Origin: an archaeon
GTDB taxonomy: Archaea; Nanobdellota; Nanobdellia; Woesearchaeales; JAADFO01
NCBI GenBank assembly: GCA_043817075.1
Contig: JBDRHG010000017.1
Coordinates: forward strand, 16,492-80,491
Reading direction: 5' to 3'
Length of the DNA stretch: 64,000 nucleotides
Shown here piece after piece: positions 512 through 25,707 of this stretch. How positions within the stretch are numbered: the stretch's first letter is position 1; each line of letters begins with the position of its first letter. A program made the translations under genes and the position numbers. The notes beneath the pieces are model-generated. The model was not told the origin of the DNA, did not search any database, and saw nothing but the letters and a program-made list of their open reading frames with translations.

Positions 512-3500
512 TCAGTTCCCGACTGGATAGACGGCGAATCCAGATACGGTGACGCTTCCAGGCCCTTCTTCTCCACAGTTCGTCGGACCGTAGCATCCTT
601 CTTCTGCCACACAGACCTTATCGCACATGGTCTGCTCGCACTCTGTGGCTGACTTCAAGGAAAGTTGATGGCTGCCGGCTGAGAGCTGGAACGAGCCCAA
701 GTATTCCCATCCGCTGGTCACCAACAACGCATCATGGTCATCATCACCCGAGATGGGGCCTCGGGTTCCGCCTATCTCGACGAAGAAGTCCTCATTCGCC
801 TCCTCCTCACAATACATGCTGTTGTGCTCGACCAATGGACAGGTGAACGTATCTGCGAAATACTCCGCCATGTTGGCATAGGTCCTACCGCAGCCAGTCG
901 AATGGTAGTTCCACCAATCAGCATGGCCTGTCTGGGCCGTGAGCTGAGCCTGAGCAGAAGAAGCACAGCCTCCTCGATCGACGAGACCATAGACCTTGTA
1001 GGCTCCTGATGAAGGAACAGAGATGGACATGCCAGCAGTCGCAGGTATCGACTCGCTGCAACCATCACCAGCTACGGTAAGATCCGCTGCTTGGGTGGCT
1101 GGACCATTGAAGACGATCACCTCTATATCGAGAGCGCTAACAGCGTTGTCACCATCCGTGTCTGCGACCATGCAGACCGCAGTATGATCGCCTACATCGG
1201 TGAAGATGTGAGTGGCGGAAACTGACTGTCCAGGTGCCTTGTCCAGGAATTCATCACCTGCCGTACCGTCACTATAGGATATGGTGAAGACCAGTGGTCC
1301 TTCGCCACCCGTAGCCGTGCAGGAGAACATCGCGGTCAGCGGAGCGAACCCTGACTGTACGTTCGAGGAGAACGCGGTGACCACTGGCGCCATGTTCTCG
1401 AACAGACATATCGATGAACAGCCGTCACCATTGGCGACTCCACCGTCATCGCATTCTTCTTCGTCCTGTATCCATCCATCACCGCAATGCGGGCCCGTGA
1501 TGGTGACATCAGTGCAATCATCCTCGCAGTATTCGCAGGTCTCGCCATAACCGGCACTGCACACCAGGCCATTGTATTGGGCCAGGTCGCACTCTTCCTG
1601 GCCCTCGGTCACGCCATTGCCGCAATAGCCGCCGCCGACCGTGGCCACAGCACATTCGTCAGAGCAATAGGTGCAAGAACCCTCATATGAAGGGGTGCAA
1701 GGAACCCCGTTGTCGAACCCTTCATCGCACTCTTCGCCGGCGTCGCGGACACCGTCGCCGCAAAAGACCTCATCAGGTCTCGGGCAATCGGCCCAGAGCC
1801 AATAATTGGAATCTTCAGTGGTGGTCTCGAGCTCATACATGCCCGCGATGTCTGCATCGAATGTGATGAGGACAGAACCGTCGATGTCATCCGGATAGGG
1901 CTGATCATACTCCTCATCGAATATGACGTGTCCTTCGGGATCGGTGATCTCGACCGTCATCTCCCTGTAGTCTATCCCCTGTCCGGGCCTGTTGATGGTG
2001 TACTTGTCGAAGAACACGAAATCGTACGTGTCCGGGATGAGATACATCTCATTCGTCTTATGGCCATCATGGACGATGTCCATGTTGTCGATGTTGTAGG
2101 CGGGATTGTCCTTGTTCTGAGCCAGGAATCCCTGGATGGCGCGTGCCCCGAGGTCCATCCCGCTCCAGGAGAGCGATGCGTCGACAGAGACCTCGGCGCC
2201 ACGGTAGGTGTCGATGGCGCATACCTTGACCCCGAAAGAGTCCTCGAAACTCTTGGGACAGGTGATGGGGACATCCACACCGTCAAGCTGCACTTTAGTA
2301 AACACGGTATCCTTCCGAGAGAAGACCACGAGCTGATCATACCAGACCTTGAAAGTCGTGGCGGCGGGGATGAAGGGATTCGGCGGATTCTGCCGTTGAT
2401 AGAAATACAGATCCCCTTCGCCCTGGCAGGTGCGGAAGGGTAGTGTCTCCTTGACGCAGAGCGCAGAACACCCATCATCATCGATATTATTGCCGTCGTC
2501 GCATTGCTCATAGCCTGTGCCAAATGGGTTGTTAGGCGTAGGCGGTCCTCCGAGTCCTTCGCCGTTGGGCGACTGCATTGTGCCGTCGCCGCATTTGGTG
2601 AACCTACAGGCATCAGAGCACTGGTCGGTCGGATCGCCGTTCTTGCCGTCGTCGCAGTCTTCTCCCGTGTCCACGATGCTGTTTCCGCATCGGGGCTGGT
2701 AGACATGTTTGCATGAGCAGACAGAGAGATCACAGATATCATTGGTGTTGGGGTCTACGTCCGCGCAATCCTCATCGACCGCGCACGCCGCGCCGCACTG
2801 ATCCTTGACGCAGGCATAATCATAATCTGTCTCCTGGCAGCCGCAGGTGGCATCGCAATCGCCGTAGCCATCACGTGCCCCGTATTTCGGACCGTCACAA
2901 TCCTCAGAGGGCTGCGGACAATACTGGTTCAGGGCGGTGCCGGGATACTCACACTCCTCACCCTCATCAAAATCGACCACACCATTATCGCACTGGGGAA
3001 CGTACACATGGTCACAAGAGCAGGTCTCCAGGATACATGCATCATTGGTATTGGGATCAAGATCATCACAATCCCCATCGCCTGCACAGGTGGCACCGCA
3101 AGAGCCGACCACACAGGCATAATCATAATCCGTCAACTGACAGCCGCATGTGGCATCGCAATTGCCATATGCAGGACGGGTGCCGAGCTTGGCAGCATCA
3201 CACTCTTCAGGATCCTGGGGACAATACTGATTCTCGGGCGTGCCAGGATACTCACACTCCTCACCCTCGCTATAATCGACCACACCATTATCGCACACAG
3301 GGACATAGACGTTATCGCAAGAACACGTCGTCAGGCTGCAGGAGTCATCAGTCAGCGGATCCAGGTCATCACAGTCGGCATCCACGGCGCATGCTGCGCC
3401 ACAATTGTCAGCCACGCATGCGAAATCGTAATCGTCTTCCTCGCAACCGCAGGTCTCGGAGCAATCACCATATTGATCACGAGTCGCGGTGAAGACACCC

Positions 3501-6500
3501 TGACAGGTGCTGTTGTCCTGAGGGCAATAATCGTTGTTCCTTGACTCTTTCGGTTCGCACTCCTCGCCAGGATCAAGATAATTGTTGCCGCAGAAGAAAT
3601 CCTCGAACAGGCAGATCTCCTCGACATGCACTTCACCAGACGAGCCTAGATTTTCACAAGTCGATGCGGTGTGCATATACACATCATTGCTTCTTGGGAC
3701 GAAAGAGAATGAGCCGAAGTCCTCATAGCGGATGGAGACTGTGGCCGGGTCGGCATCATCCTCGGAAACAGCGCTCTCCTTATCGTTGACCTCGAGGGTG
3801 AACGCTTGATTGGGCTCTGCGCTCCCTGCCGGGCGATAGGACTTGGCCACGAGCCTGTAGGTCCCGGCGTCGCCGACACCGAAAGTGTCCATGTCCATAA
3901 TCTTTCCAGGATCATGGCATCCCTCTCCATAGACGAACATATTCGTAGGGAATAGATAATCATAATCCGCATTTTCGCACAGGTTGTCCCCGTTCTCGAG
4001 CACAGTGATGAGCACGATTTTGGTGTCCGACAACCCCTTGACATCCGTGACCTCGAATTCGATAGCATACTTGCCGACGTCCGAGAATCCGGTCTGCCAG
4101 GAGAATCGCAAAGCGTCGGGATTGAAGAGGTCACGACGAGGCAGAGCACCGTATCCTTCGACATTGATCGAGTAGTCAGATGAGAATGTCAATGGATCGA
4201 AATCAGGGTCGGTCCCGCTTACCTCGAAAGTGAGCAGCTGGCCTTCCTTGATGGTGTGGGGAGAATCGACATAGATGGTGGGCGCCCTGTTCGTGTAGCC
4301 CACATAGATGTTGACTTCCTGGCTGCAGGAGAGCTGCGGCGGAGGGTTGCCGTCATCCTCTGCTGAAAAGATGACTTGATACACCCCGTAATCGCCGACT
4401 TCTGTCTGCCAGGTCAGCACTTCGCCGTCGAATGAAGCGCCTCTGTTCTGGAGAACGGACGGGAGGTCAGCCTCGTAGGAAAGCACCGGATCATCGGGAT
4501 CGCTGATGAAGTCCATCGCCCGGATAGTGAGTAGCTCACCTTCATCGACATAGAAATCAGGGAAATGGCAGACCGGTGGACCATTGAGCACATATCTGAT
4601 TTGGACATTGTCACCTGCAAGCACTCCGCCATCGGAGATGAAGTCGACCGGCACGAGGCAATTGCCTGCGTGGCAGTCGCAGTCGATGGTGCCCTCGCGG
4701 CAACCTTCAAGATAGCCGTTGACGAGATCGGTGAAGTCAGGCATCGATTCCTGGACACCGTAGTAGCCCTCATAGCTCCATATCTCGGTGCCAGTCACAT
4801 TGACTGAGGGGGTGAAAGGATATCGCGCGTCTGCGCATTCTCCCTGGTTGACGACGTCGTCAGGGTTGTCGCAGCAGGCGCAGTCATCAGCGTTCTCCTC
4901 GTCGGCACAGACGAAGAATTCTTTGGGGTCATCGCCGCAGCAGTAGTTCTGGGTGATGCCCTCGCCGGTTGGACCCCTCAGACCGTTGTCGCCGTTGTCG
5001 TATGTGTTGCCATTGCCAGAGGGTGCCGTAGCCTGTGCGGTCACACCTCGCATCCCGTTGCCGGGGGTGTTGAGTAATCTATTCCCGCCGGGCCCGACCG
5101 TTCCGCTGGCAGTGTCATCACAATAGTCCAGTCCGCCATCTCCCCAGCGATCAGCAGGCTCGCATCGCCACCCGTCTTCTGGCGAGACCCAATCTTTGCC
5201 CCAATAGGTTTCGCAATAGGGATTGCCATCCCGGTTGGAGTCGCCGACATCGGCGTCCATCCATGCTGAGTAGTTGATGAAACCGACGCAGAACTCGAAG
5301 TCCGCCGACTCATCAGAATCGTCAGGAAGCGCATCCTGGATATCCAACATAGCCAAACGTGGATAGCAGGTGGCATTCATCACGCATGACCTGTCCTCCT
5401 CGCAGCACGCGGAATCGGTGGGATTCGTATAGGTGGTGCCACCGCAGTTATTATTCGGCGCGAAGCACACATGGGTATCTGCGGGATCCCAGTCACGGTA
5501 GATAGCGGGATATTCAAACGCATCATCTCCGCAACAGAGATACGTATCGAGGTCGGTCGGATCGAGACCGACATGCACCCAGGCCTGCGGGGGAACATTG
5601 ACGCTATCGTTGTCGTACTCTGCATGGAGCGCACCGACGCAGCACTCCGGTGACCGGATACCACTGAGGTTGACATATTGGTCCGCATCGCACATTCGGT
5701 ACTGTTCCTGGTAAATCAGGTTACTGGCTTGGTCATAGGTATTGAGAGTGATGTCGACGAGAGAAGTCTCGCGGATGCTCTCTTTGATGATGCGGCTGCT
5801 TGTATAGTCATAGAGATAACGGATGTCATAGCCTGCAGCCGACTCCTGGTCGAAAGGGACATAGGAGACTGAGATGAGGCGGTTGAGCGCATCATATCCA
5901 TACACATAGGTCCCGGCGTTGGGATCGAGGCTGTTGCGCGTCTGGAGATTGCCGGCGTCGTCATACGTGTAAGTGAAATAGCCATCCTGCAACAAACGGT
6001 TGGTGCCCGGCTCGATGGTGAATTGAATATCATCGCGACTGATGCGGTTACCTGCCTTGTCATAAGCGAAAGAGACATCGTATGCGCCTCCGGAGGGATC
6101 CGGGACTGGGAGATAGTAGCCTTTGTCATCCACATCCGTGAGCCGGTTGAGATCATCGTATGCAAATCCGGCGCTCGCGCCGGAGAGGGCCTCAGTGATA
6201 CTGAGCAGATTACCAGCAGGGCCGTAGGTATACGTCTCCTTCAAGGTCGACGAATCGATGGACTCGAGATAGTTCCTCGGGGAAAGGCCGAATGTGGCTG
6301 CGACCACGCTGCCCAAGGTCAACGACGAGTAGGCATTGGACGGGTTGTAGTCCACGCTGACCGCATCCTGGATATCGACGGTGCCATCCCCATCGAGATC
6401 GATCGATATCCCGGTAGTCTGATCAAGAAGGTTGTAGGTATAATGGGTATGTCGGTTATCGGGATCGTCGAGCCGAGTCAGACGTCCGCCCTTGTCGTAT

Positions 6501-7276
6501 TGGTAGCTGACGGCATAACCGTTACGCACGAAACGCGTGGCATTGGACCCGACCTCGAGCTGTGCGGCGTCAAGCATGACCTCCTGAGCACTGTGAGAAG
6601 AGAGGAAGAACTGGACGATGATGTGCTTAGTGCCAGATGGAAAGTCTTTGGAGATCTCCTGGCTATAACGCACCCACGACTCATTGACGTTGATGAAGTA
6701 ATGCTTGGTGTCGATGACCGCCTCGGCTGAATCGTTGTAGTAGAGGATCTTGAGCGCGAGATTTCCAGTCCCAGAAAGCCTCTTGGCCGAGAACGACACC
6801 GTGTGCTTCTGCTGTCTATTGGCCGGGATATGCCTCGACATGATGTCATTATAGGTGGGATTGCCCCCGTAAGGCTGAGGAGCGGTGAGCTTGACACAGG
6901 AAGGTCCTTGTACGCAATCCTCGTTGACGAAGACCGTCTCAGGATCCATGACACGCCAGATGGCACGTTCCTGCACATCGAAGCCACCGTCAGGGAGACG
7001 ATTCTTGTAGTTGACCAACTTGATATGCCGTGACAGGTGCCCGCGCATATCATATTCAAGATAGGTCGTCGCGGCAGGGTCGGTGATCATGCAGGGTCGC
7101 CCCATGGAATACATGTGCAGAGGACAGGCGAAATCGTCATCATAGTGGAACTGTACCTGCCCTTCAGCGGCATATGGCATGTCTTGGGCGGCAGCAGGGA
7201 GGGCCAACAGGGTACCGGCTAAGAGGATATAGATTGCGATTCCCAGAATCCTGGTATGTCTATTGCTGCCCATCAT
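512..7276 (-). CDS. secreted 2254-aa multidomain protein: RHS/YD-repeat segment with an inserted CBM4/9-like domain, Cys-rich CCGDD regions, cadherin/Ig-like domains, DUF4215-type Cys repeats, PKD domain, two CBM-like beta domains
   Basis: Signal peptide (LLALPAAA|QD); YD repeats (YDKGGRLT, YDDLNRLT, YDKAGNR, YDDAGNL, YDALNRL); CGNxxxDxGExCDDG repeats; NRAP...DPDFDPLTF Ig-like; APLTAMFSC PKD; no C-terminal TM. Confidence 0.9.
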   Translation of the reverse strand: MMGSNRHTRILGIAIYILLAGTLLALPAAAQDMPYAAEGQVQFHYDDDFACPLHMYSMGRPCMITDPAATTYLEYDMRGHLSRHIKLVNYKNRLPDGGFDVQERAIWRVMDPETVFVNEDCVQGPSCVKLTAPQPYGGNPTYNDIMSRHIPANRQQKHTVSFSAKRLSGTGNLALKILYYNDSAEAVIDTKHYFINVNESWVRYSQEISKDFPSGTKHIIVQFFLSSHSAQEVMLDAAQLEVGSNATRFVRNGYAVSYQYDKGGRLTRLDDPDNRHTHYTYNLLDQTTGISIDLDGDGTVDIQDAVSVDYNPSNAYSSLTLGSVVAATFGLSPRNYLESIDSSTLKETYTYGPAGNLLSITEALSGASAGFAYDDLNRLTDVDDKGYYLPVPDPSGGAYDVSFAYDKAGNRISRDDIQFTIEPGTNRLLQDGYFTYTYDDAGNLQTRNSLDPNAGTYVYGYDALNRLISVSYVPFDQESAAGYDIRYLYDYTSSRIIKESIRETSLVDITLNTYDQASNLIYQEQYRMCDADQYVNLSGIRSPECCVGALHAEYDNDSVNVPPQAWVHVGLDPTDLDTYLCCGDDAFEYPAIYRDWDPADTHVCFAPNNNCGGTTYTNPTDSACCEEDRSCVMNATCYPRLAMLDIQDALPDDSDESADFEFCVGFINYSAWMDADVGDSNRDGNPYCETYWGKDWVSPEDGWRCEPADRWGDGGLDYCDDTASGTVGPGGNRLLNTPGNGMRGVTAQATAPSGNGNTYDNGDNGLRGPTGEGITQNYCCGDDPKEFFVCADEENADDCACCDNPDDVVNQGECADARYPFTPSVNVTGTEIWSYEGYYGVQESMPDFTDLVNGYLEGCREGTIDCDCHAGNCLVPVDFISDGGVLAGDNVQIRYVLNGPPVCHFPDFYVDEGELLTIRAMDFISDPDDPVLSYEADLPSVLQNRGASFDGEVLTWQTEVGDYGVYQVIFSAEDDGNPPPQLSCSQEVNIYVGYTNRAPTIYVDSPHTIKEGQLLTFEVSGTDPDFDPLTFSSDYSINVEGYGALPRRDLFNPDALRFSWQTGFSDVGKYAIEFEVTDVKGLSDTKIVLITVLENGDNLCENADYDYLFPTNMFVYGEGCHDPGKIMDMDTFGVGDAGTYRLVAKSYRPAGSAEPNQAFTLEVNDKESAVSEDDADPATVSIRYEDFGSFSFVPRSNDVYMHTASTCENLGSSGEVHVEEICLFEDFFCGNNYLDPGEECEPKESRNNDYCPQDNSTCQGVFTATRDQYGDCSETCGCEEDDYDFACVADNCGAACAVDADCDDLDPLTDDSCSLTTCSCDNVYVPVCDNGVVDYSEGEECEYPGTPENQYCPQDPEECDAAKLGTRPAYGNCDATCGCQLTDYDYACVVGSCGATCAGDGDCDDLDPNTNDACILETCSCDHVYVPQCDNGVVDFDEGEECEYPGTALNQYCPQPSEDCDGPKYGARDGYGDCDATCGCQETDYDYACVKDQCGAACAVDEDCADVDPNTNDICDLSVCSCKHVYQPRCGNSIVDTGEDCDDGKNGDPTDQCSDACRFTKCGDGTMQSPNGEGLGGPPTPNNPFGTGYEQCDDGNNIDDDGCSALCVKETLPFRTCQGEGDLYFYQRQNPPNPFIPAATTFKVWYDQLVVFSRKDTVFTKVQLDGVDVPITCPKSFEDSFGVKVCAIDTYRGAEVSVDASLSWSGMDLGARAIQGFLAQNKDNPAYNIDNMDIVHDGHKTNEMYLIPDTYDFVFFDKYTINRPGQGIDYREMTVEITDPEGHVIFDEEYDQPYPDDIDGSVLITFDADIAGMYELETTTEDSNYWLWADCPRPDEVFCGDGVRDAGEECDEGFDNGVPCTPSYEGSCTYCSDECAVATVGGGYCGNGVTEGQEECDLAQYNGLVCSAGYGETCEYCEDDCTDVTITGPHCGDGWIQDEEECDDGGVANGDGCSSICLFENMAPVVTAFSSNVQSGFAPLTAMFSCTATGGEGPLVFTISYSDGTAGDEFLDKAPGQSVSATHIFTDVGDHTAVCMVADTDGDNAVSALDIEVIVFNGPATQAADLTVAGDGCSESIPATAGMSISVPSSGAYKVYGLVDRGGCASSAQAQLTAQTGHADWWNYHSTGCGRTYANMAEYFADTFTCPLVEHNSMYCEEEANEDFFVEIGGTRGPISGDDDHDALLVTSGWEYLGSFQLSAGSHQLSLKSATECEQTMCDKVCVAEEGCYGPTNCGEEGPGSVTVSGFAVYPVGN
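2700..3590 (-). repeat. three tandem ~101-aa (303-nt) Cys-rich repeats inside the 2254-aa gene
   Basis: GEECE..NxYCPQ..YGxC..CGC..YDxACV..CGAxCAxDxDCxDxDPxTxD repeated three times; GATACTCACACTCCTCACCCTC occurs at 2944 and 3247. Confidence 0.9.
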
Positions 7277-8387
7277 TCTTGTCTGACCTCTTTTTTACAG
7301 TGTCGAGACCTTCGCGGTCCAACGCATATGTCTCGACGATCTCCCGTCCGATCTTATCGTATTCGTGGGTCACGATATTGCCTTTCTGGTCGACCGATTC
7401 ATTAATCTTCCCGGTGAGCGTATAGGAGAAGGCGGTCCTGCCGCTGTCAGGGGTCATCTTCTCGACCAACCAGCCGGCGGAGTTGTATAGCCAAGTGAAC
7501 ACGGTCCCGATAGGGGTCTCGACCTTGGTCAGCTTCCCGAGCAAGGAGCTTTCGAAACGATGGGTGTTGTCAAAGGTGGCTCCGCAATGTTCACCGGCAT
7601 CGATGACGGCTCCGGAACGTAAGCAGGAGTCCGGACAGACGCATGGGCCTTCACTCTCACAGCCCGAGCACGCAGGAATGGTACCGCCGCAGCTCTGGCT
7701 ACGTGAAACATAAGTCCTTTCGGTCACGGTGCAGCCGTCAGGGCAACGGCAAGGTCCGGTTGCGCTACAATCTATACATGCCTGGTCCGGTCTGATCACC
7801 TTATCACAGCTCAATGGATCCCCAGGGGCAGCGTCGGGATCGCAGCAGCTCTGGATGCTGGTGCCAGACAAAGTCTTGAAGTCGGCGGTCGGACAGCAGA
7901 TGCCCAGACGGGAATCGAAGGTCTCGTCCGAGGAATCCCCGCAACAGCTGAACTCTTCCCGCGTTTGTCCCTCGTATACAGATTCCCCGATGAATATTCC
8001 GCCTTGCAATTGGCAGGCGAACCGATGCTCATCAGGATCATAGCAGCCTCCTACCCTGACATTGCGCTTGTCGAACCATCGTTCGACATAAACCTCTACG
8101 CAGACCTGCCCTTCGCAGCAGGGACAAGGGTTTTCATAACCAGGGAACCAAATCTTGCCATCATCGAGAGTGCTGCACCAAGGCGCTGACCGTTCCCCTG
8201 CCCGATACATCTGGTCAGCGACATTGCCTGAGACGCACTGACCTTCCTTGTTGCAGTCCCATGCAGAGACCGATAGGCTCGACAGTGCCATGAGGATCGG
8301 CAAGGCCAGGAGTATCATGCTTAACGCAGAGACTATGAGCCTACCGGTTGGATGTTGTCTGTGTCCCTTGCTGTCGTACTGTGCCAT
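7260..8387 (-). CDS. secreted Cys-rich protein ending in a short RHS/YD-repeat segment
   Basis: Signal peptide (SSLSVSA|WD); Cys-rich N-part; C-terminal LLGKLTKVETP..YNSAGWLVEKMTPDSGRT..YDKIGREI. Confidence 0.85.
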   Translation of the reverse strand: MAQYDSKGHRQHPTGRLIVSALSMILLALPILMALSSLSVSAWDCNKEGQCVSGNVADQMYRAGERSAPWCSTLDDGKIWFPGYENPCPCCEGQVCVEVYVERWFDKRNVRVGGCYDPDEHRFACQLQGGIFIGESVYEGQTREEFSCCGDSSDETFDSRLGICCPTADFKTLSGTSIQSCCDPDAAPGDPLSCDKVIRPDQACIDCSATGPCRCPDGCTVTERTYVSRSQSCGGTIPACSGCESEGPCVCPDSCLRSGAVIDAGEHCGATFDNTHRFESSLLGKLTKVETPIGTVFTWLYNSAGWLVEKMTPDSGRTAFSYTLTGKINESVDQKGNIVTHEYDKIGREIVETYALDREGLDTVKKRSDKNDGQQ

Positions 8388-8393
8388 GGTGAT

Positions 8394-10235
8394 TCACGGA
8401 GTGAGGTATGCTGGGAAAAGGTCCCCGTAATAACCGTCATATTCCTGCTCTGTGGTGAGAGGATTGCCGAAGAGGTCGAATGTGTGCTTGGCCACCGTGT
8501 TGTTCTCCCCTTTGATCAGGATGACAGGGTTTCCATCAACGCTCGAATAATCGTAGAGCAACACCGAGTCGTCTTCGTTGATGACTCTGAGGAGGCGATG
8601 ATCAGGTGACGTCGAGTACAGATATTCACGGTAATGGATCCCCTTGTCGGCAGGATCATATTCGCTGCCAGAGGCAAAGACTGGAGAATAGTCCCTGAAC
8701 ACTTTCCCGAAAGGATGGTAGGTAAACGTTGAGACTGCGTATTCATCAGAGCCGTCATCCTTCTTCATCCGAGTCTGGAGGAGATGGCCTCTACCATCAT
8801 AGTATTTTATCGTCTCAGTATACACACCGTCCGCGACTTTCCCACGGACGATGACCTGATGAGGTGAGGTTCCTGAGTCCGCGAAATTGAACTCTTTGAC
8901 CTCAGAGGGATCGTCTAGAGTGTCGCCCGGCAGAGCGATCTTGACTAGACGCGCAAGGGAATCATATTGCATCGTAGACTCCATTTTGTTCTCATCAATC
9001 GATTTGCTGACCTTGCCCATGGGATGATATTCCTTTCGCCAGGCAGGATCGCTGGCAGATCCGAACTCCTCATTCCAACCGGAAGTGGGATAGATTTCTC
9101 TGAAGCTCCCGGAGAACGACGTGAACTGTCTGTTGCCGTCCGGGTCGATCGATTCCTTGGGTGTGCCGAACCGGTTGAATGCCACGGTCGTCACGACCGC
9201 GTCGAGATCAGGAGAGGTATAGCCGTTGTTCCATGAGTAGGAATTGTCGAGGTTGAGGTCAATCCAGAGGTGGACTTTGTTGGGACGCCATACTGAAGAT
9301 GCCTGGCAATCGACAGGACAGGTGATGCTGGTCTCCTCTGACTGGCAGACATGGTCGCCGCATTTTGAGGAAGGAGGTGTATGGCTACGAAGTTGCCATT
9401 CCCAGATACCATAGGAATGGATCTTCTTGCACACATAATTGCCGCATGACTTGTCGAGATCGGCATCGTTAGGATCATTGCCACAACATCGCTGGTCCTC
9501 ACATGCGGCAGATTCCTCGTTTATCGATAACCAATCACCCCCTCGATCGCGGCAAGATGAAGGATTGTCTTCACCATAGAACCAATCCGGGGCATCGACT
9601 TGGCATGTGCCGGAGGTATCGCAGGCACCCAAAAAGGTGTCACGTCTGCACGTTTTCGTCCGGCATGCGTAAGCATTCCCTCTGAAGTCGCAATGACGGT
9701 AGCATTCCTGGTCCTCGACCATGTCACAGTCTAACTCATCGATTTCTACGGTGAAGGGCAGGATGTTGTTACTACCATCATCCATCTCTCCCATGAAGGC
9801 ATAGCATCCAGGATCGAGCTGGACGGTCTGGACCTCGTCTGGTCGCATGAAAAGAGTCTCTACTGAATCGGTCCACGTATAGGTGGACGCTATGTCAACG
9901 GAATAGCATTCATGGGCACTGGTTACATCTCTTTGGGCGATTTCGATGAGACCCATGGGATCTTCGTCACGGCTATCGCATTCCCCGTCGCGACAATCAG
10001 ACGCCGTGAAGACCATGACATCCACCACCTCCCCATTCTCTACCCAGACATTGTACGTGCCGCAGGAGTACGCGCCGACGCATTCGAAATTCTGATAGCC
10101 TTGAGCGAATGGCGCCGAATCCCACATCGTGACGCATTGCCCCGCCACCGAAGAGACCGAAGACAGGACGAGGAGCGCGACAGCTGAGGCGAAAAGGATA
10201 CGCAGTCCTAATGTGTCGTGTCTTGCCATATTCAT
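8394..10235 (-). CDS. secreted protein: ~250-aa Cys-rich module followed by an RHS/YD-repeat segment
   Basis: Signal peptide (SSVAG|QC); FNRFGTP..DPDGN, YDSLARLVKI, YYDGRGHLLQT, YHPFGKV, FDLFGNP. Confidence 0.88.
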   Translation of the reverse strand: MNMARHDTLGLRILFASAVALLVLSSVSSVAGQCVTMWDSAPFAQGYQNFECVGAYSCGTYNVWVENGEVVDVMVFTASDCRDGECDSRDEDPMGLIEIAQRDVTSAHECYSVDIASTYTWTDSVETLFMRPDEVQTVQLDPGCYAFMGEMDDGSNNILPFTVEIDELDCDMVEDQECYRHCDFRGNAYACRTKTCRRDTFLGACDTSGTCQVDAPDWFYGEDNPSSCRDRGGDWLSINEESAACEDQRCCGNDPNDADLDKSCGNYVCKKIHSYGIWEWQLRSHTPPSSKCGDHVCQSEETSITCPVDCQASSVWRPNKVHLWIDLNLDNSYSWNNGYTSPDLDAVVTTVAFNRFGTPKESIDPDGNRQFTSFSGSFREIYPTSGWNEEFGSASDPAWRKEYHPMGKVSKSIDENKMESTMQYDSLARLVKIALPGDTLDDPSEVKEFNFADSGTSPHQVIVRGKVADGVYTETIKYYDGRGHLLQTRMKKDDGSDEYAVSTFTYHPFGKVFRDYSPVFASGSEYDPADKGIHYREYLYSTSPDHRLLRVINEDDSVLLYDYSSVDGNPVILIKGENNTVAKHTFDLFGNPLTTEQEYDGYYGDLFPAYLTP

Positions 10236-18631: not shown

Positions 18632-21600
18632 ATGAATAGGTGGTTGAAAAAAGAGGGTGGACTACTTGATGTATTTATACGACCCTCTCTTCTCTGCTTC
18701 TCTGTTGCCATTCTGATTCTGACTTTCGGTATCCCATCGGCCGACGCCCAGAGCATCCTCTGCGAAGACGGCACACTGGTCGCCCCCAATGCTGGCGGCA
18801 CACCTCCTGACTGCACCATCGTAGCTTCCCAGACCTTATCTGTCGACAATGACAACCCACCGACCTATCGCTTCAACACCCTGACAGTCAACACTGACTT
18901 CCAGCTGTGGTTCCGGGATACGGGTGCCGTCGTGTTTTCCATCCGTGGCACTGGTGGTATTGGAGGAAGACACTCTGATGAAGGTGGTGATGGAGGAAGA
19001 GGCGGAAACAGCGGAGTTGCAGGTTCCAGAGGTGGATCCGGAATTAAAGGTGACAATGGTGACGAAGGGGGTACCGGCGGAGGCGGAAGAGTGGGAGGAT
19101 ATGCAGGCGGAATCGTCATAATCGAAGCCACCAACATCATCATAAACGGCAAGATTAGCGTCAACGGCTCAGTTCCGGCATCTCTCTCCGGTGGTACAGG
19201 AACAAAAACCGGAGGCGGAGGCGGAGGCGGCGGAGGCGGAGGCGGCGGAGGAACCATCACCATCCGTGCCAACGACCTTTCCGGAGCCGGCTTTGTCGAA
19301 GCAGGAGGCGGTCGTGGCGGCAATGGTGGAAAAGGTCATAATGATGGTGGATGCCGTCCATGGTTTTGCGACTTTGACGATGACGGTGGTGGAGGCGGAG
19401 GAGGCGGAGGAGGCACTGGCGGTTCAGTCATCATCTCCGCAAGCGTGAATATATTTCCAGATTCCAATATCATTCTAACTGGTGGTCCGTTTGGGAAAGG
19501 CGCCGAGAAAGTCGGAGACGCAAAAAAAGGCCAAGACGGTGATCCTGGTCCTGACGGCGACGACACCCCTGACGAACTGGCCATCGAGGACTGCAACAAC
19601 CGCGTGGACGACGACTGGGACCAGCTCGTCGACATGGGCGATCCTGACTGCTACAATATCTATCCTAATGGCCAGTGCCCTTCAACCAATTACGGCATGT
19701 ATGGCGGCGAAATCGGCGACGGTGAGACCTCGCCTGTGCCGCCGGCGCTCATTTCTGCTCAGGATGGATCCGACGGCTGCTGCGGCGACGATGATTTCAA
19801 CGGCCACTTCAGACTGACAGATGAAGATGATTACGCCCTCGGATGGACTATGGTCCCCATTGACGCGGGCATCACCCTGGATGTCACAGACAACAAACTC
19901 GATTTCAAGGTGTCAACAACTGACCCAGATTTCGTCGATATCTATAGTCCAATCATCGAGATTACCGACCCCAATAGACCATATGTGGTCAGGACGATAT
20001 ATTCTGCAAGGAATATTCCTGAAGAAGGCAACATGGTGCTAAACCTTCGATGGCTAAAGAGAGTCGAAGCAGAGTTCACGCAGGCTAGCCCCGACGAAAT
20101 AGTCACCCATGTCACCGGAGAGATCGACTATGACATGAAAATAGAGAAAGTGTTCGAAGGTGCCGCCCGCGACGGAGCCACTGCCATGCAGATATTCATC
20201 CAGATACGCGGCCTAGAATCGAGAACACAGGACGTAATCTTCACCTTCGACGATATCGAGATCATCCAGACCGGCGACCTTGGCTGGACTAACGCAGACA
20301 GCGAGTTTCTCTGCACTCACGATAGCGGCTGGAACTGGAAGGTATCCCAACTGTATGAGAACACCATCTTGTCACAGGTCGGCAACAGCGACATCGTGTC
20401 CAACGCCGACGGCTGGTTTTCCTGCGACGCAGGCACCGACGACCAGATAGACAAGGTGACGTACGGCGAGCTCGCGGACGACCACTACATCAACAAGTAT
20501 GGCCTCTTCCCGCCGTCGGAAGGTGGTGGGCAATCAGGAGATAACGGGTGGTATCGATGCATAGACTGGTGCGATCAGATCTGGGTTGATGAAATCACAG
20601 ATCCAAACACAGGCAGGGATAATCCTGAAGATCTGCTGTTCAAGGCAAGGAATTTATGTGGGGACGGTAGCGGGTGCGTACCCTATGAAGGTGAATCTTG
20701 TTGTCCTTCGGCACCATCATATCCTGCGAACTGCGACAAAACGATTAACGTTGACTGTTCTGATGGTAATCCACAGAACAATGTTTGTGATGTCTGCGAA
20801 CCGCCAGGTGATGGGGATGGAGGCGAAGAGACCCCTGACGGCATCGTTCCCGAAGATGCTTGTGACGATCCGAATTCAGAGGAGTGCATCGGAGAATCGG
20901 GAGGTACGTCTCATCTGACGTGTGCTGTCATCGCGAATCTGAAAGGTTTCACGTACGACCTCTGCGGCCAGAACGAAGTATGCGCAGACGGTGGCGTCTC
21001 ATTCCAGAGTCTCGACGACGGCTGCTGCATCGGCGGTCGGTGCCGCACACGAGACGAACTGGGCATCCAATGCACCAGCGGACATGTCTGCATAAAAGAC
21101 CTGGAGGTCTGTCCTGAGACGAGCATCATCACAAGCAATGAGAACGAGATCTGTTGCGCTGAACCCTGCAACATCAATCCCGACCTCTTCCTGGGCGGTA
21201 AACCGAACACGGCATTCATCTGCTATGAATTCGGCGAACATGCGTATTGGGCAGAGTGTTGCAGCCCCAATTGCAAGAATAACAATCTGAGGGAGAGCAT
21301 AACACTCTTCGAGAGAGGCAGCCCATTCAATATGCTATACAGCGCTGACTATAGGAACCAAGCTAGGACCAAACTCCTGGGAGGAGCCTTAAGAAGACGG
21401 GATATCTCAAAGAATTCCCGGAGTTTCTTGTTCAATCTGCTCGGCGCGGAGAACAATCTGGTAAGGAAAGGGAAAGGTGACTGGACCGGATTCGATCAGC
21501 TCGAGTTCTCAATCGCCTACACCAAACCTGTCCGTGGTCTAGAGATCAGGGGCTACGAAGAGAACGCAGCACCCATCTGCGACTTCAACAGCATTGATCA

Positions 21601-22426
21601 CTCCATCATAGAGTTCAGCAACAACGGAGACGCCAGCGGCAAATGGCACCACATCACGTTGCCGCTCAGGAATGATATCTGCGATATCGGCGACAATCTT
21701 GTCAAGGAGGTCTACCTCAAAGATCTTGACACCGCATCTCCGGACGAGATGATCAATTACGTCATTGACAATATCTATCTCTCGAATAGTGTTGAGGAGA
21801 GCTATTTCTGCACTGGCGAATATCAGACATGGATCCAAGGAATGGAACCGGAGACCACGGATGGACTGTACGATGAAGAAGACATCCCCTACAAGTATGC
21901 CTGCGAAGAACAACCTGGATACTCCTGGACAGGCGATCAGTGCTGCGGCTCGAAGACAGAAGGGTTTGGAAACGATGCAAAACGCGAATATTATATCGAT
22001 CTCCTAGCCGGTTGCTGGGATGGTGCAGGCGTCTTCAACAACCAACGCGCCAGCGATGCCACCGGACTCTTCCGGTATCGCAATGTGATGTTTACCATGG
22101 ACGAAGTCGAAGAAGGACGCGGCGACTTTTACTATTGCGGCCCGCATGTTGCCGATACCATCGGACTCACCGACATTGATCCTCCAGCAGAAAATTCCCG
22201 TGACCAGGACGCCAAGCTCCTCTTGCAGACCGCAGACACCTGTGAATCCATTGGCCTCCTTTACTGCAGCACCGATGACACCTTCAAGGCAGTGCCAGCA
22301 GGCCTCGAGATCGACGACGGCAACAATCCAGGCGCAGAGCTCTACGAGCCAGGCATCACCATACTCGGCCAGAAACAGCATCCGCCAGGCATGAGTCTAG
22401 TGAAGAATGGGGGGTTTGAGCGATGA
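18632..22426 (+). CDS. secreted Gly-rich/Cys-rich protein with CBM-like beta-sandwich domains
   Basis: Signal peptide (PSADA|QS); GGGGGGG..GGxI repeats; CCGDD; two domains ending FDDIEI and IDNIYL; C-terminus SLVKNGGFER. Confidence 0.88.
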   Translation: MNRWLKKEGGLLDVFIRPSLLCFSVAILILTFGIPSADAQSILCEDGTLVAPNAGGTPPDCTIVASQTLSVDNDNPPTYRFNTLTVNTDFQLWFRDTGAVVFSIRGTGGIGGRHSDEGGDGGRGGNSGVAGSRGGSGIKGDNGDEGGTGGGGRVGGYAGGIVIIEATNIIINGKISVNGSVPASLSGGTGTKTGGGGGGGGGGGGGGTITIRANDLSGAGFVEAGGGRGGNGGKGHNDGGCRPWFCDFDDDGGGGGGGGGGTGGSVIISASVNIFPDSNIILTGGPFGKGAEKVGDAKKGQDGDPGPDGDDTPDELAIEDCNNRVDDDWDQLVDMGDPDCYNIYPNGQCPSTNYGMYGGEIGDGETSPVPPALISAQDGSDGCCGDDDFNGHFRLTDEDDYALGWTMVPIDAGITLDVTDNKLDFKVSTTDPDFVDIYSPIIEITDPNRPYVVRTIYSARNIPEEGNMVLNLRWLKRVEAEFTQASPDEIVTHVTGEIDYDMKIEKVFEGAARDGATAMQIFIQIRGLESRTQDVIFTFDDIEIIQTGDLGWTNADSEFLCTHDSGWNWKVSQLYENTILSQVGNSDIVSNADGWFSCDAGTDDQIDKVTYGELADDHYINKYGLFPPSEGGGQSGDNGWYRCIDWCDQIWVDEITDPNTGRDNPEDLLFKARNLCGDGSGCVPYEGESCCPSAPSYPANCDKTINVDCSDGNPQNNVCDVCEPPGDGDGGEETPDGIVPEDACDDPNSEECIGESGGTSHLTCAVIANLKGFTYDLCGQNEVCADGGVSFQSLDDGCCIGGRCRTRDELGIQCTSGHVCIKDLEVCPETSIITSNENEICCAEPCNINPDLFLGGKPNTAFICYEFGEHAYWAECCSPNCKNNNLRESITLFERGSPFNMLYSADYRNQARTKLLGGALRRRDISKNSRSFLFNLLGAENNLVRKGKGDWTGFDQLEFSIAYTKPVRGLEIRGYEENAAPICDFNSIDHSIIEFSNNGDASGKWHHITLPLRNDICDIGDNLVKEVYLKDLDTASPDEMINYVIDNIYLSNSVEESYFCTGEYQTWIQGMEPETTDGLYDEEDIPYKYACEEQPGYSWTGDQCCGSKTEGFGNDAKREYYIDLLAGCWDGAGVFNNQRASDATGLFRYRNVMFTMDEVEEGRGDFYYCGPHVADTIGLTDIDPPAENSRDQDAKLLLQTADTCESIGLLYCSTDDTFKAVPAGLEIDDGNNPGAELYEPGITILGQKQHPPGMSLVKNGGFER
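18947..19560 (+). repeat. glycine-rich low-complexity coding repeat
   Basis: GGAGGC/GGCGGA runs encoding poly-Gly stretches separated by short beta strands. Confidence 0.8.
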
Positions 22427-25400
22427 TAAGGAATGTCAACGCAAAAAACGGACTCATCCTATTGGCGATAGCCATCGCTCTCCTCATGCTTCCAACGATC
22501 AATGCAGTATGCGGACAGACCTGTATCTGGCAATCCAATCAACAGGTGAATCAATATAATATGTTGAATGAATGGGTTGCCAAGGGCGCGTCTTCGCCAT
22601 ATAATAAGCTCTATAATATCTGGACTGATGCAGACAATACGCTGACTGTATCATTAGATGCAAACTGCCGTGAGGGCATAATGAGCTGCGTAGAGAGTCC
22701 ATATATCGGCGAGGTCATCCAGTATGATGCAACCGATGAGTGGGATTGCTACGCGTATGATTTTGTTGCGGATTTCCAATGGGGTAACAATTTGTTTCGA
22801 TCTTTATACATGGAGCCAGGGGATACCGAAGAGGTGACTCTTACCCCTGGATGCTACGCAGTCATGTTGGAATCAGACGATGAGAGAGGTTATGACGCGA
22901 TGCATCAGTTCACCGTCGACATCAATCTCAACAATGAATACGAAGAGAAACAAGACTGCTTCCTGGAATGTGAATACGAAGGTTCAACTAATACCTGCTC
23001 GAATCTTCCTTGCCTCGGACCACGTGATGACATGATATGCGACGGGAACGGCATTTGCATTGATCAACCATCAGAAGGCAATCCTGAGTTGGATTATGTC
23101 TCCTGTATTAAGTCGGCGAATCCTTCACCGGATTTCCTTTCGACGAGCGAGTATCCTGATAACTGTCTTCGCTGCTGCGGAAATGAAATTGATGATGGGG
23201 GAACGACTTGCGGCCCCTGGACTTGTAACATGATAACTTCTCCTTCCGTTCAGTTATATTGGTCCCGCACATTTTTCGATGACAATGATGGTGACGGATA
23301 CGGCGATCCCACATCTGGTGTGGAAGCGGAAACTCAAGGACTCAGAGTCACAGACAGCACCGACTGCGACGATACAAGAATAGATATCTATCCAGGCGCG
23401 TCAGAATCGACAGAGATCAATTGTACAGATACCATCGACAATAATTGCGATGGAGATATTGACGAGGATGACAGCGAATGCTCGCGTGACTTCTACGATG
23501 ACGATGACGGCGATGGCGTCATCAACCGATACGACTGGTGCCCTGAATCACCAGATAACCCCACTGACGCGAATGGCTGCTCCATCCCACCGACTCATTG
23601 GGAGATTGACTACACATCCATCAAGGACGACCGCTTCACCCTGCTCGAGGTCGAGACGGACGACGAATGCGGACTCGCTCCGCCATGCATCAATCTCAGC
23701 CACGAATTTACCAACACCCTCACACAGACATTCATCGCTCCGGAAGGAACCTATGCGGCCAAGGCCAACATCAAGGGTGAGAACGGCAAGGTGACGTTTT
23801 CCGCTGGGACTCTGATTGCGGAGTTCCACAACGACCAAGGAGACGAGCGGGAATTCGTCAGCGACCCGGTTGTCTTCATCGACGATACCACCGTAACGAT
23901 AACGCTGTCGATTGTCGATCCAGGTCGTAGCAACACTGAAGATTCATACATTGACGATGTCATCTTCGCGAAGATGAATGCCAATAACGATCCCGCGACA
24001 GAGCTGCCCATCCAATCCTATTATGACTACCAATTTTCAGGCTGTTGCCCTGCAGCCTATTGCTGGAACGGCACAGCCTGCATGCCTGCAACTCATTTCG
24101 ACAGCCAAGACGTCTACTACGTCTTCGCCGAGACCGAAAATGACGTCACGGACGAAGAAGGCAACCTCATCATCGAGGAAGGTTATCGTTGCATAGCGGA
24201 CGATGAAAGGAATGCCGACTGGTTGTTGTCGAACAAACAACCAGATTGGTACGGCACATCAGAAGGCTTCTGTGACAGCGAGACGGACTGCTTCGTCAGG
24301 CTCGCGGACGAGACCGATTGCGTCGAGATCCCTGAAGACGCTTGCTTTCTCAACGAGGAGATTCATTGGACAACGTCAGAATTGGTTGGTGAAATCACCA
24401 ATCCTGACGTCAACTGCCTTGCCGACGGCCAGTACATTCGCGACCATTACTGCGACGGAGGAGATTGGACCACTCGTACCGCAATCCTCGCCGCATTGTT
24501 CGAGAGGGTCGTCAAATACTACGGAGAAACAGACGCAGACTACACGCTCCATTGCGACAAAGGAGAACAGTCACTGAATCTATTACCAGATGTGCTCTCC
24601 GACTCAGAATACCTTCAAGAACAGCTGCGGTACTGTGTGCTCACCTTCAGGGACAGCCAAGGCGATGCGGAGAAGACCATCGTCGGCGCTCCAATCTTCA
24701 AGCTCAGCGTGGACATCACCAATCAGGCTAAATTCGATGAATACATGGAAAGTTTTTTCGATATGAATAGGCTAGACCAATTCCAGGCAGAAGAGGTCAT
24801 CAGTACTTGCCCTGACGCTTTCGAAGAAGAGCTCACCGAAACAGAGAAGGACGCTTTCTTCGAATGCGAAATCACATCAGCGAAAGCGGGCGAACTATGG
24901 TATAATCCCCGCCTCAAGATAGCCGTCTATTCCCAACAGCATGACCTGCCGATCCAAGACGCTTACGAGACTACGCAAGCGGAAAACGATGATCCCGATT
25001 TCGACTTCCTCGAATTCATCACCAGGCCTTTCAATGCGCTGTTCGAGCTCGTCCGCAACCTCATCAACGGACCTGAGCAGCTACAGCCAAAGGAGTTCGA
25101 CCAGCTATACGAGAACAAGGCGCATGGACGGTCCGTCGAGGGAATCAGCAGAGATATATGGACCGACACCGGGCTCGCCTTCGACCAGTTCTACATCAAT
25201 TTCGAGGACATCAGCGAGGACCTCTGCGATCCTATCAATCGGGCCGTCGGAGTGAGCTTTGATTCCTCAAGATTCTATGAGGACTGCGTCCGCGACCTCT
25301 CTGCTCAGCAGTCCGATATCGCGACGTACATCCGAGGACCTGGACGTGAACGGTTCTGGCCAGGCATCTCTGGGATGCTGCGCATCCAAGACGACAATAC

Positions 25401-25707
25401 CTGCAGCGAGGACGGCCAAACATGCGGTGACGGCAGGCTCTGCTCAGAAGGGAGGTGCGTCGACATGACGACCGACCGAAAGCACTGCGGCGGATGGGAG
25501 ACTGAATGCATATCGACACAGATCTGCCAGGGAAGCGATTGCGTCGACTGCCCTAACCTCCAGGTCGCATGCGACAACGTCTGCACAGACACGCTCAATG
25601 ATGAGTTGAACTGCGGCATCTGTTTCCATGAATGCGATGACGGCATCGAATGCCGACGTGGCATCTGCGGATCAGGCGGCGGCGGCAATGGCAACAACCT
25701 GCAATGA
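22423..25707 (+). CDS. secreted Cys-rich multidomain protein (shared ~250-aa module, Asp-rich metal-binding motifs, partial CBM-like domain, C-terminal Cys repeats)
   Basis: Signal peptide (PTINA|VC); DNDGDGYGDP..DCDD..IYPGA..DNNCDG; CxDxxxDxxHCG/NCG repeats; ATGA overlap with the upstream gene. Confidence 0.88.
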   Translation: MIRNVNAKNGLILLAIAIALLMLPTINAVCGQTCIWQSNQQVNQYNMLNEWVAKGASSPYNKLYNIWTDADNTLTVSLDANCREGIMSCVESPYIGEVIQYDATDEWDCYAYDFVADFQWGNNLFRSLYMEPGDTEEVTLTPGCYAVMLESDDERGYDAMHQFTVDINLNNEYEEKQDCFLECEYEGSTNTCSNLPCLGPRDDMICDGNGICIDQPSEGNPELDYVSCIKSANPSPDFLSTSEYPDNCLRCCGNEIDDGGTTCGPWTCNMITSPSVQLYWSRTFFDDNDGDGYGDPTSGVEAETQGLRVTDSTDCDDTRIDIYPGASESTEINCTDTIDNNCDGDIDEDDSECSRDFYDDDDGDGVINRYDWCPESPDNPTDANGCSIPPTHWEIDYTSIKDDRFTLLEVETDDECGLAPPCINLSHEFTNTLTQTFIAPEGTYAAKANIKGENGKVTFSAGTLIAEFHNDQGDEREFVSDPVVFIDDTTVTITLSIVDPGRSNTEDSYIDDVIFAKMNANNDPATELPIQSYYDYQFSGCCPAAYCWNGTACMPATHFDSQDVYYVFAETENDVTDEEGNLIIEEGYRCIADDERNADWLLSNKQPDWYGTSEGFCDSETDCFVRLADETDCVEIPEDACFLNEEIHWTTSELVGEITNPDVNCLADGQYIRDHYCDGGDWTTRTAILAALFERVVKYYGETDADYTLHCDKGEQSLNLLPDVLSDSEYLQEQLRYCVLTFRDSQGDAEKTIVGAPIFKLSVDITNQAKFDEYMESFFDMNRLDQFQAEEVISTCPDAFEEELTETEKDAFFECEITSAKAGELWYNPRLKIAVYSQQHDLPIQDAYETTQAENDDPDFDFLEFITRPFNALFELVRNLINGPEQLQPKEFDQLYENKAHGRSVEGISRDIWTDTGLAFDQFYINFEDISEDLCDPINRAVGVSFDSSRFYEDCVRDLSAQQSDIATYIRGPGRERFWPGISGMLRIQDDNTCSEDGQTCGDGRLCSEGRCVDMTTDRKHCGGWETECISTQICQGSDCVDCPNLQVACDNVCTDTLNDELNCGICFHECDDGIECRRGICGSGGGGNGNNLQ

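Follow-up and report, generated by a model that had tools for sequence, protein, structure and literature searches.

How can a single domain of a secreted protein come to be divided between two genes, and can its parts meet again outside the cell? The question is raised by two adjacent genes in a stretch of 64,000 nucleotides (hereafter the window, G000:C17:16492-80491) from the small genome (G000; 1.5 Mb in 26 contigs) of an uncultured archaeon. The upstream gene encodes P0001, a protein ending in the motif that opens beta-sandwiches of the CBM_4_9 type (a family of carbohydrate-binding modules, CBMs), and the downstream gene encodes P0002, which carries a CBM-like jelly-roll without a recognizable first strand. 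P0001 and P0002 are the halves of one giant surface protein, and it is proposed here, with a probability of roughly 55%, that the tail of P0001 completes the sandwich of P0002 in trans by strand complementation. A link of this kind had been suggested in an initial annotation made from the window alone, and the comparisons below extend it to related genomes.

P0001, the upstream half or "A" protein, is known from its open reading frame (ORF; 18632..22426, forward strand) and translation as an acidic, Cys- and Gly-rich secreted protein of 1264 residues with a hydrophobic N-terminus, and no Pfam family matched it at E <= 1. Its C-terminus reads ...HPPGMSLVKNGGFER (longer excerpt GQKQHPPGMSLVKNGGFER) and is followed by two consecutive stops, TGA and TAA, so that the ending SLVKNGGFER (encoded at 22394-22423) given in the initial annotation was confirmed. 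Within it, the tail PPGMSLVKNGGFER (22382..22423, +) is the candidate donor strand, corresponding to strand 1 of a CBM_4_9-like sandwich. It is preceded by a poorly conserved linker of Pro, Gly and acidic residues (aa 1219-1250; 22286..22381, +), which connects it to the end of the A-module (LLYCSTDDTF). The A-module, the part of P0001 common to relatives, covers aa ~780-1145 (20969..22066, +) according to BLASTP ranges.

P0002, the downstream half, is likewise defined by its ORF (22423..25707, +) and translation as a secreted protein of 1094 residues. Its ATG at 22423 overlaps the P0001 stop by four bases (ATGA), and it begins with a signal peptide of its own, MIRNVNAKNGLILLAIAIALLMLPTINA (22423..22506, +), which reaches 3.3 as the maximum over 12 residues in a Kyte-Doolittle hydrophobicity scan. 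The segments that had been pointed out as the remainder of a CBM-like domain (HWEI, ECGLAPPCINL, LTQTF, GTY and YIDDVIF) all lie in P0002 at aa 392-515 (nt ~23596-23970), and the candidate acceptor, a CBM-like jelly-roll without its own strand 1, was delimited at aa ~393-518 (23599..23976, +). It is followed by the B-module, which opens with CCPAAYCWNGTAC and extends from aa 541 to ~1000 (24043..25400, +; BLASTP ranges).

That the two proteins belong together is indicated by relatives in which they are one. Each protein was used to search 41 related genomes, and the ORFs fetched were compared again by BLASTP. The A-module of P0001 was matched in 12 of the 41. Single ORFs in G002 (2023 aa), G009 (1724 aa) and G014 (1477 aa) match P0001 aa ~720-1170 and then P0002 aa ~516-990, and the same A-then-B order was found in single ORFs of G025 (2118 aa) and G005 (1854 aa); the fused genomes belong to other genera. 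Two genomes that at first seemed to hold the A-module only, G012 and G035, also contain the B-module and are thus fused. The homologs with fused genes that the initial annotation had proposed to look for therefore exist, with both modules in the same order in one ORF, the pattern of a gene fission (or Rosetta-stone) pair. The B-module, which in relatives always opens with CCxxx[YF]CW, is present in 137 of 301 genomes of the order at E <= 1e-5, a tally that takes in the unpublished genomes G207, G123, G246 and G185, which contributed to no other result. Together with the single-ORF relatives, this distribution indicates that the one-chain form is the usual one.

The 4-base overlap of the two ORFs might instead suggest an artefact, that is, a single gene broken by an assembly or sequencing error, or a gene pair read through or frameshifted into one protein. 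This explanation is hardly credible: P0001 ends in the two consecutive stops, P0002 opens with a signal peptide and ~390 residues lying outside the sandwich, the same break and overlap recur in the independent assembly of a second genome of the genus (G001), and analogous breaks are found in six further genomes.

Comparison of the junctions shows where the break falls. Three architectures were distinguished in the segment that leads from the A-module end (G-x-[YF]-[YF]-C...W) to CCxxxYCW. The first is a short linker of 36-75 residues without a sandwich (e.g. G009, G213, G269, G124 and G131). In the second, a complete cis sandwich lies within one ORF, where VPG[KR]N[LIF][LI][AP]NA.F...W is separated by ~130 residues from the CC of CCxxxYCW (G248, G097 and G298); the junction of G002 reads GENLIKDSRDY and continues into a beta-rich stretch. 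The third is the split form. The domain is thus divided between two genes, as had been claimed for the window: in relatives both halves stand in one ORF, and in some of them a complete sandwich has the tail motif at the same position. The sandwich of G195, directly before CCxxxYCW, is a Pfam CBM_4_9 domain (35.0 bits, cutoff 25.9, profile positions 4-133 of 136). Its first residues, INNPDYKGNLDGW, were aligned to the N-terminal IPNGDFETGNLSGW of the solved porphyran-binding CBM 8xmz, a weak match (E 0.005). The tail motif of P0001, N-L-V-x-N-G-G-F-E, is the first-strand motif of this G195/CBM_4_9 sandwich, and a profile comparison placed the tails on strand 1 of the cis forms, weakly and over a short stretch (E 0.015, 18 columns). 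In the same G195 locus (L141, 1859-2332), TSP3/MopE-like repeats such as those of P0002 precede the CBM_4_9 domain and the B-module, and the ORF runs off the contig.

The tail has also been kept at the protein level. The gene pair is also present in G001, a genome of the same genus, again with a 4-base overlap, and the upstream protein of G001 ends with the tail PPGMNLVRNGGFEG. The proteins of G000 and G001 are 34-39% identical overall. In a 50-column alignment of their C-termini, 11 of the last 14 residues are identical (PPGM[SN]LV[KR]NGGFE) compared with 5 of the preceding 36 positions, and 7 of the 11 conserved tail codons differ synonymously. Since the peptide is kept despite these synonymous changes while the linker has diverged, the constraint acts on the peptide and not on a ribosome-binding site for the downstream gene; the tail is, on this comparison of codons, under protein-level purifying selection. 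It could be argued that the tail, left over from the fission, now has no function and is decaying, given that it is short and that the genus is represented by two genomes. Such conservation next to a diverged linker, in proteins of only 34-39% identity, makes this very improbable, and so does the recurrence of similar tails elsewhere.

This recurrence was seen when the regions upstream of B-module matches were scanned, in 47 stretches whose match begins at the CCxxxYCW end of the query. CCxxxYCW was present in 31 ORFs, 10 of which are closely preceded by the end of a same-strand ORF of at least 250 aa; eight of these 10 upstream ORFs carry a tail of the N[LY][LIV]xN[GS]xF type. They come from at least four families: f1 (G000, PPGMSLVKNGGFER; G001, PPGMNLVRNGGFEG), f66 (G068, VGVNYITNGDFDYEVPE), f81 (G291, PPATELLKNGKFGGDC...; G083, PPATNLIKNSDFGGEC...; G177, PPGPNLVKNGGFN; G239, PAGNLIFNGNFEVTP) and f53 (G165, NQLFDGDFNDI). 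The tails of G291 (L114) and G083 (L142) continue beyond the strand-like motif into a further conserved segment containing a Cys pair (GGDCPPTVCAQQGNNTGN in G291, GGECPITICIEQGNNTQTG in G083), for which the other tails have no counterpart. Downstream genes whose start is clear all encode a signal peptide of their own, and the downstream start lies at -4 (G000), -4 (G001), +1 (G291) and +1 (G083) nt relative to the upstream stop. The two adjacent upstream ORFs without a strand-1-like tail are those of G015 (L110), where a run is masked, and G019 (L119), where the break lies inside the A-module. In the latter, an A-like ORF of 711 aa stops within the module (...GGCWNSLYLEEGELINATY) and the next ORF continues to the B-module, so the break point is a different one and may reflect a frameshift or a pseudogene. 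Among 20 additional loci, with B-module matches beginning later in the query, two contained CCxxxYCW and none was a split pair.

In the G000 genome, the tail motif occurs within the last 35 residues of one of 2414 ORFs of at least 150 aa, and that one is P0001; the single CCxxxYCW module of the genome is in the gene next to it. With a loose version of the motif, about two chance occurrences would be expected in 2414 tails, so the argument depends on the motif being paired with the module, and on this pairing being found again in other genomes. The DNA pattern LV[KR]NGGFE-x-TGA was found across the genome contigs at one locus, on the G001 contig, and a phmmer search with P0002 aa 375-536 against 1.84 billion representative sequences returned only the query itself and the G001 ortholog. 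Extra phmmer matches, P0004 and P0005, were judged spurious (low-complexity or Calx-like repeats). No matches were obtained in a homologous-protein search with P0001 aa 860-1264 or in a search for longer proteins with P0002 aa 530-760. In metagenome contigs, 78 loci were found via MopE-type Asp/Cys repeat patterns, and none of them had the sandwich, the tail, the A-module or the B-module by tblastn. Altogether, the fused relatives, the conserved tail and its recurrence point to an old gene fission that is located just after strand 1 and has been maintained, as read from the sequences compared.

Whether strand 1 is really missing from P0002 was considered from the region before its sandwich. 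The annotation had remarked on the absence of a first-strand motif, and this was borne out: no N-x-x-x-N-G-x-F occurs ahead of the Trp, where the sequence reads ...DANGCSIPPTH-W. The in-chain arrangement of CBM_4_9, N-x-x-x-N-G-x-F-E followed by G-W, is not found in P0002, and its motif is the C-terminus of P0001. The sandwiches of G195, G000, G001 and G068 share ...[NS]GC in front of them, and the spacing from this GC to the Trp is 19 residues including the strand-1 motif in G195, compared with four to six residues in G000 (SIPPTH), G001 (SFPPRG) and G068 (DLDV). In an hhalign block (E 0.05, 21 columns), the Trp of the window's sandwich falls within three residues of the canonical G195 Trp. 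Strand 1 thus appears to be missing, at the sequence level, from the sandwiches of G000, G001 and G068, and may also be missing from P0002 structurally.

The fold of the acceptor was approached with models and searches. AlphaFold2 (AF2) models of aa 375-536 (2-row alignment) and aa 382-542 (11 rows) have mean local confidence scores (pLDDT) of 57.8 and 64.3, a predicted template-modelling score (pTM) of ~0.6 and 10-11 strands; their first 55 and 25 residues, respectively, have a pLDDT below 50. Foldseek against the PDB retrieved CBM4-2, CBM6, MAM, CBM16 and Cry domain III (E 1e-4 to 1e-3, TM 0.3-0.4), and VIA-align gave Z 8.2 with CBM16 (root-mean-square deviation 2.5 over 100 residues) and Z 7.7 with 8xmz. 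A wide search independent of Foldseek reached a best Z of 7.0 (TmCBM61, CBM16 and a beta-galactosidase domain), graded middling by the tool. The nearest Atlas clusters, that is, look-alikes by language model, were GH101 domain 5/GalBD-like and CBM_4_9 (0.93), and a profile of seven split sandwiches matched the GH101 sandwich in the PDB, again weakly (E 1e-3). Matches to "Cake" repeats in PDB sequence searches were spurious. The region appears CBM-like, as the initial annotation had it, in its fold class, which these models place with low-to-moderate confidence among the CBM-like jelly-rolls; the window's copy is not recovered as a CBM_4_9 member. The split domain of G068 comes nearer, at 20.4 bits and E 7e-4, still under the cutoff. 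The annotation had also offered an intact domain elsewhere in the window as a template, in a 2254-aa RHS-repeat protein (512-7276, -). There, NRLPDGGFD...W...EDCVQGPSCVKLT...LDAAQLE is indeed present at aa ~92-245, as a complete CBM-like domain (6542..7003, -). Its BLAST comparison with the P0002 region was not significant (E 4.2), so it can serve as a pattern-level template only.

Several of these results weigh against strand complementation and have to be set beside it. Neither the whole of P0002 nor the domain alone gave a CBM hit in Pfam even at E <= 10 (CBM_4_9, PF02018, has a cutoff of 25.9), the models are of low-to-moderate confidence with middling structural matches, the 2254-aa template holds at the level of a pattern only, and hhalign comparisons of split and cis sandwiches were not significant (E 0.08, and E 0.05 over 21 columns). 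The second AF2 model contains a strand after the sandwich, at aa ~534-540, with pLDDT below 50. The downstream sandwiches of f81 (G291, G083, G177 and G239) start with GW-x7-GW, for example GININGWNSNGMQGW in G177 (ININGWN...GW), and the first GW of each is aligned to the aromatic of strand 1 in the cis forms; these sandwiches may therefore lack no strand, although the tail is kept in these pairs. In G165 the downstream sandwich may have its own strand (YNEEFTDDW). When 31 B-modules were placed in a tree by a quick method, the f81 split forms, four in number, grouped together (support 81) and the other branches were poorly resolved, so that the split may have arisen once or several times. Finally, sandwich-less fused relatives show a related junction motif between the end of the A-module and CCxxxYCW (PSGMIRDS, FLYLKDGPY and PQIRNNTK), so that the first half of the tail motif (PPGM-x-hydrophobic-[KR]-[ND]) may be a feature of the A-B junction rather than of the sandwich.

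The last point opens another explanation, in which the tail is the last conserved element of the A-module or A-B junction and packs in cis on P0001, or is a site of processing or modification. The break would then lie at a domain boundary, the P0002 sandwich would fold alone, and any association of the two proteins would use other surfaces. The sandwich-less relatives with [AP]P..-hydrophobic-[KR]-[ND] at the junction are in its favour, as are the f81 sandwiches, which seem to have their own strand-1 aromatic while their tails persist, and the AF2 models, in which the P0002 domain alone still forms a sandwich of 10-11 strands. It is nevertheless thought to be unlikely. The tail fits the full strand-1 pattern N-L-V-x-N-G-G-F-E including the aromatic and acidic residues, whereas the junction motifs of sandwich-less relatives mostly lack these and resemble N-x-S/T sequons; the same motif is contiguous with the sandwich in the cis forms; the tail stands at the extreme C-terminus on a non-conserved linker of 25-45 residues; and exactly this motif is absent before the Trp in G000, G001 and G068. 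The linkers of L110, L123, L131, L140, L008 and other sandwich-less fused loci have in common a short motif around R-N-[NT]-[ST]/K, often with N-x-S/T sequons, which may represent a glycosylated junction.

Alternatively, the tail could contact the sandwich as an extra edge strand, or displace a weak resident strand, by augmentation or exchange. Pairs with a seemingly complete sandwich would be explained in this way, namely those of G291, G083, G177 and G239, which have both the tail and GW-x7-GW; the mature downstream protein of G291 would begin two residues before the first GW. In G000, G001 and G068, however, no resident strand 1 is recognizable, and augmentation or exchange is considered improbable. 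A prediction of the complex between the P0002 sandwich (7 rows) and the last 50 residues of P0001 (7 rows) scored 0.21 and 0.20 against a mark of 0.32; it was run without controls and with an uncertain partner fold, and counts neither for nor against binding.

Strand complementation would have arisen and would operate as follows. Most relatives produce a single chain consisting of the A-module, a linker, an optional CBM_4_9-type jelly-roll and the B-module, and in the genus of G000 the gene is broken directly behind strand 1 of the jelly-roll. This strand persists in P0001 as a tail of 14 residues (PPGMSLVKNGGFE), attached through a flexible linker of ~32; a matching strand on a second polypeptide, after a non-conserved linker of 32 residues, is what a donor is expected to provide, and the tail PPGMSLVKNGGFER has this position. 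P0002 has acquired a signal peptide and extra Cys-rich N-terminal domains, and carries the rest of the jelly-roll, with strand 1 apparently missing, ahead of the B-module. The two proteins are probably exported independently of each other, by Sec. Once outside, P0001 would most likely insert its tail into the sandwich of P0002 as the missing strand, and the A-sandwich-B arrangement would be rebuilt non-covalently. A broader proposal is that the tag PPGxNLVKNGGFE and a strand-1-less sandwich of the CBM_4_9 type form a specific, chaperone-free lock, long kept in several families, which joins the separately exported halves of surface adhesins of more than 2300 residues in small-genome archaea; this is put forward as a possibility, somewhat doubtful as yet.

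Donor-strand complementation or exchange is described for surface fibres such as the chaperone-usher pili Fim and Pap, type V pili, TasA of Bacillus, archaeal threads and cannulae; TasA and cannulae provide examples of the jelly-roll type, and chaperone-free archaeal cases are known (PMC9674648, PMC12518558, PMC9715654, PMC10151520). As in these fibres, the sandwich of P0002 would be one strand short and would receive that strand from a second secreted polypeptide with a flexible extension. Unlike them, P0001 and P0002 would form a 1:1 heterodimer of different giant proteins and no polymer, the donor, at a C-terminus, would reproduce the opening strand of a CBM_4_9-like domain, and the pair would derive from the fission of a single-chain ancestor whose form persists in relatives. 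No chaperone, usher or repeating subunit is evident for the pair, although no search was aimed at chaperone or usher families, and the C-terminus of P0002 has no tail comparable to that of P0001, unlike subunits that polymerize head to tail.

The pair may also be compared with CBM_4_9 (PF02018) and related CBMs (CBM4-2, 1K42/2Y64; CBM16, 2ZEX; the porphyran CBM, 8XMZ; GH101 domain 5). It shares with them the strand-1 motif N-L-V-x-N-G-x-F-E (then G-W) and probably the fold class of the P0002 domain, and its positional equivalent in G195 is a Pfam member; it differs in that the P0002 domain is below the Pfam threshold, has an extra Cys pair (ECGLAPPC) and has its strand 1 in another gene. Like other Rosetta-stone pairs of fission or fusion, P0001 and P0002 are adjacent genes that are one gene in relatives. 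Natural gene fissions usually fall between domains, whereas the break considered here falls inside one. With its short peptide and strand-deficient domain, the pair further resembles engineered split-domain tags of the SpyTag/SpyCatcher type, and no isopeptide chemistry is indicated in it.

The remaining parts of the two proteins and their surroundings can be described briefly. The N-terminal domain of P0002 (aa 12-278; 22456..23256, +) is paralogous to a secreted 613-aa protein (8394-10235, -), with 34% identity and E 3e-25 to the N-terminal part of the latter (G000:C17:25890-26690, -). It is absent from the P0002 ortholog of G001, which marks the segment upstream of the sandwich as a variable add-on. 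In Pfam, P0002 is matched only by a MopE-type Cys/Asp repeat (PF11617; aa 314-348; 23362..23466, +; 30.5 bits, cutoff 27) and by its Stig1-like Cys-rich C-terminus, the last residues of which are GGGGNGNNLQ. A DxDxDG...CP...GC motif connects the MopE-type repeat to the sandwich. In P0001, aa ~100-290 (~19000-19500) form a Gly-rich region with 14 Gly in a row and G-G-x-G-G repeats between short hydrophobic strands, for which no Pfam match was found.

Two divergent gene sets occupy 512-17439 (-) and 18632-47286 (+) of the window and encode secreted, acidic, Cys-rich proteins, mostly very large. They include the 2254-aa protein, with RHS-repeat, PKD and Ig domains, and a 6099-aa ORF with a C-terminal hydrophobic stretch, and they are surrounded by housekeeping genes (H+-translocating pyrophosphatase, H+-PPase, and pyrimidine synthesis). 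Directly downstream, a 1071-aa ORF, as listed, starts within P0002, with an overlap of 80 bases (25628-25707); its more probable start lies further on, immediately ahead of the hydrophobic stretch MLKRAQITIFFI.

If strand complementation is correct, P0001 and P0002 would represent a natural split-domain connector in a CBM_4_9-like jelly-roll, joining two giant archaeal surface proteins 1:1, for which no published description was found at the level of titles and abstracts. It would mean that a domain cut in two by gene fission can be made whole again after export, through strand complementation. The fused, cis-sandwich and sandwich-less relatives stand side by side as natural controls, and the peptide-domain pair is small. 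Such a lock could allow partner modules to be swapped, and could be the source of a new peptide-tag/catcher pair, natural in origin and based on a jelly-roll fold. For the organisms themselves, it would offer a handle on how DPANN-type archaea build very large surface proteins, which are thought to mediate contact with the host cell.

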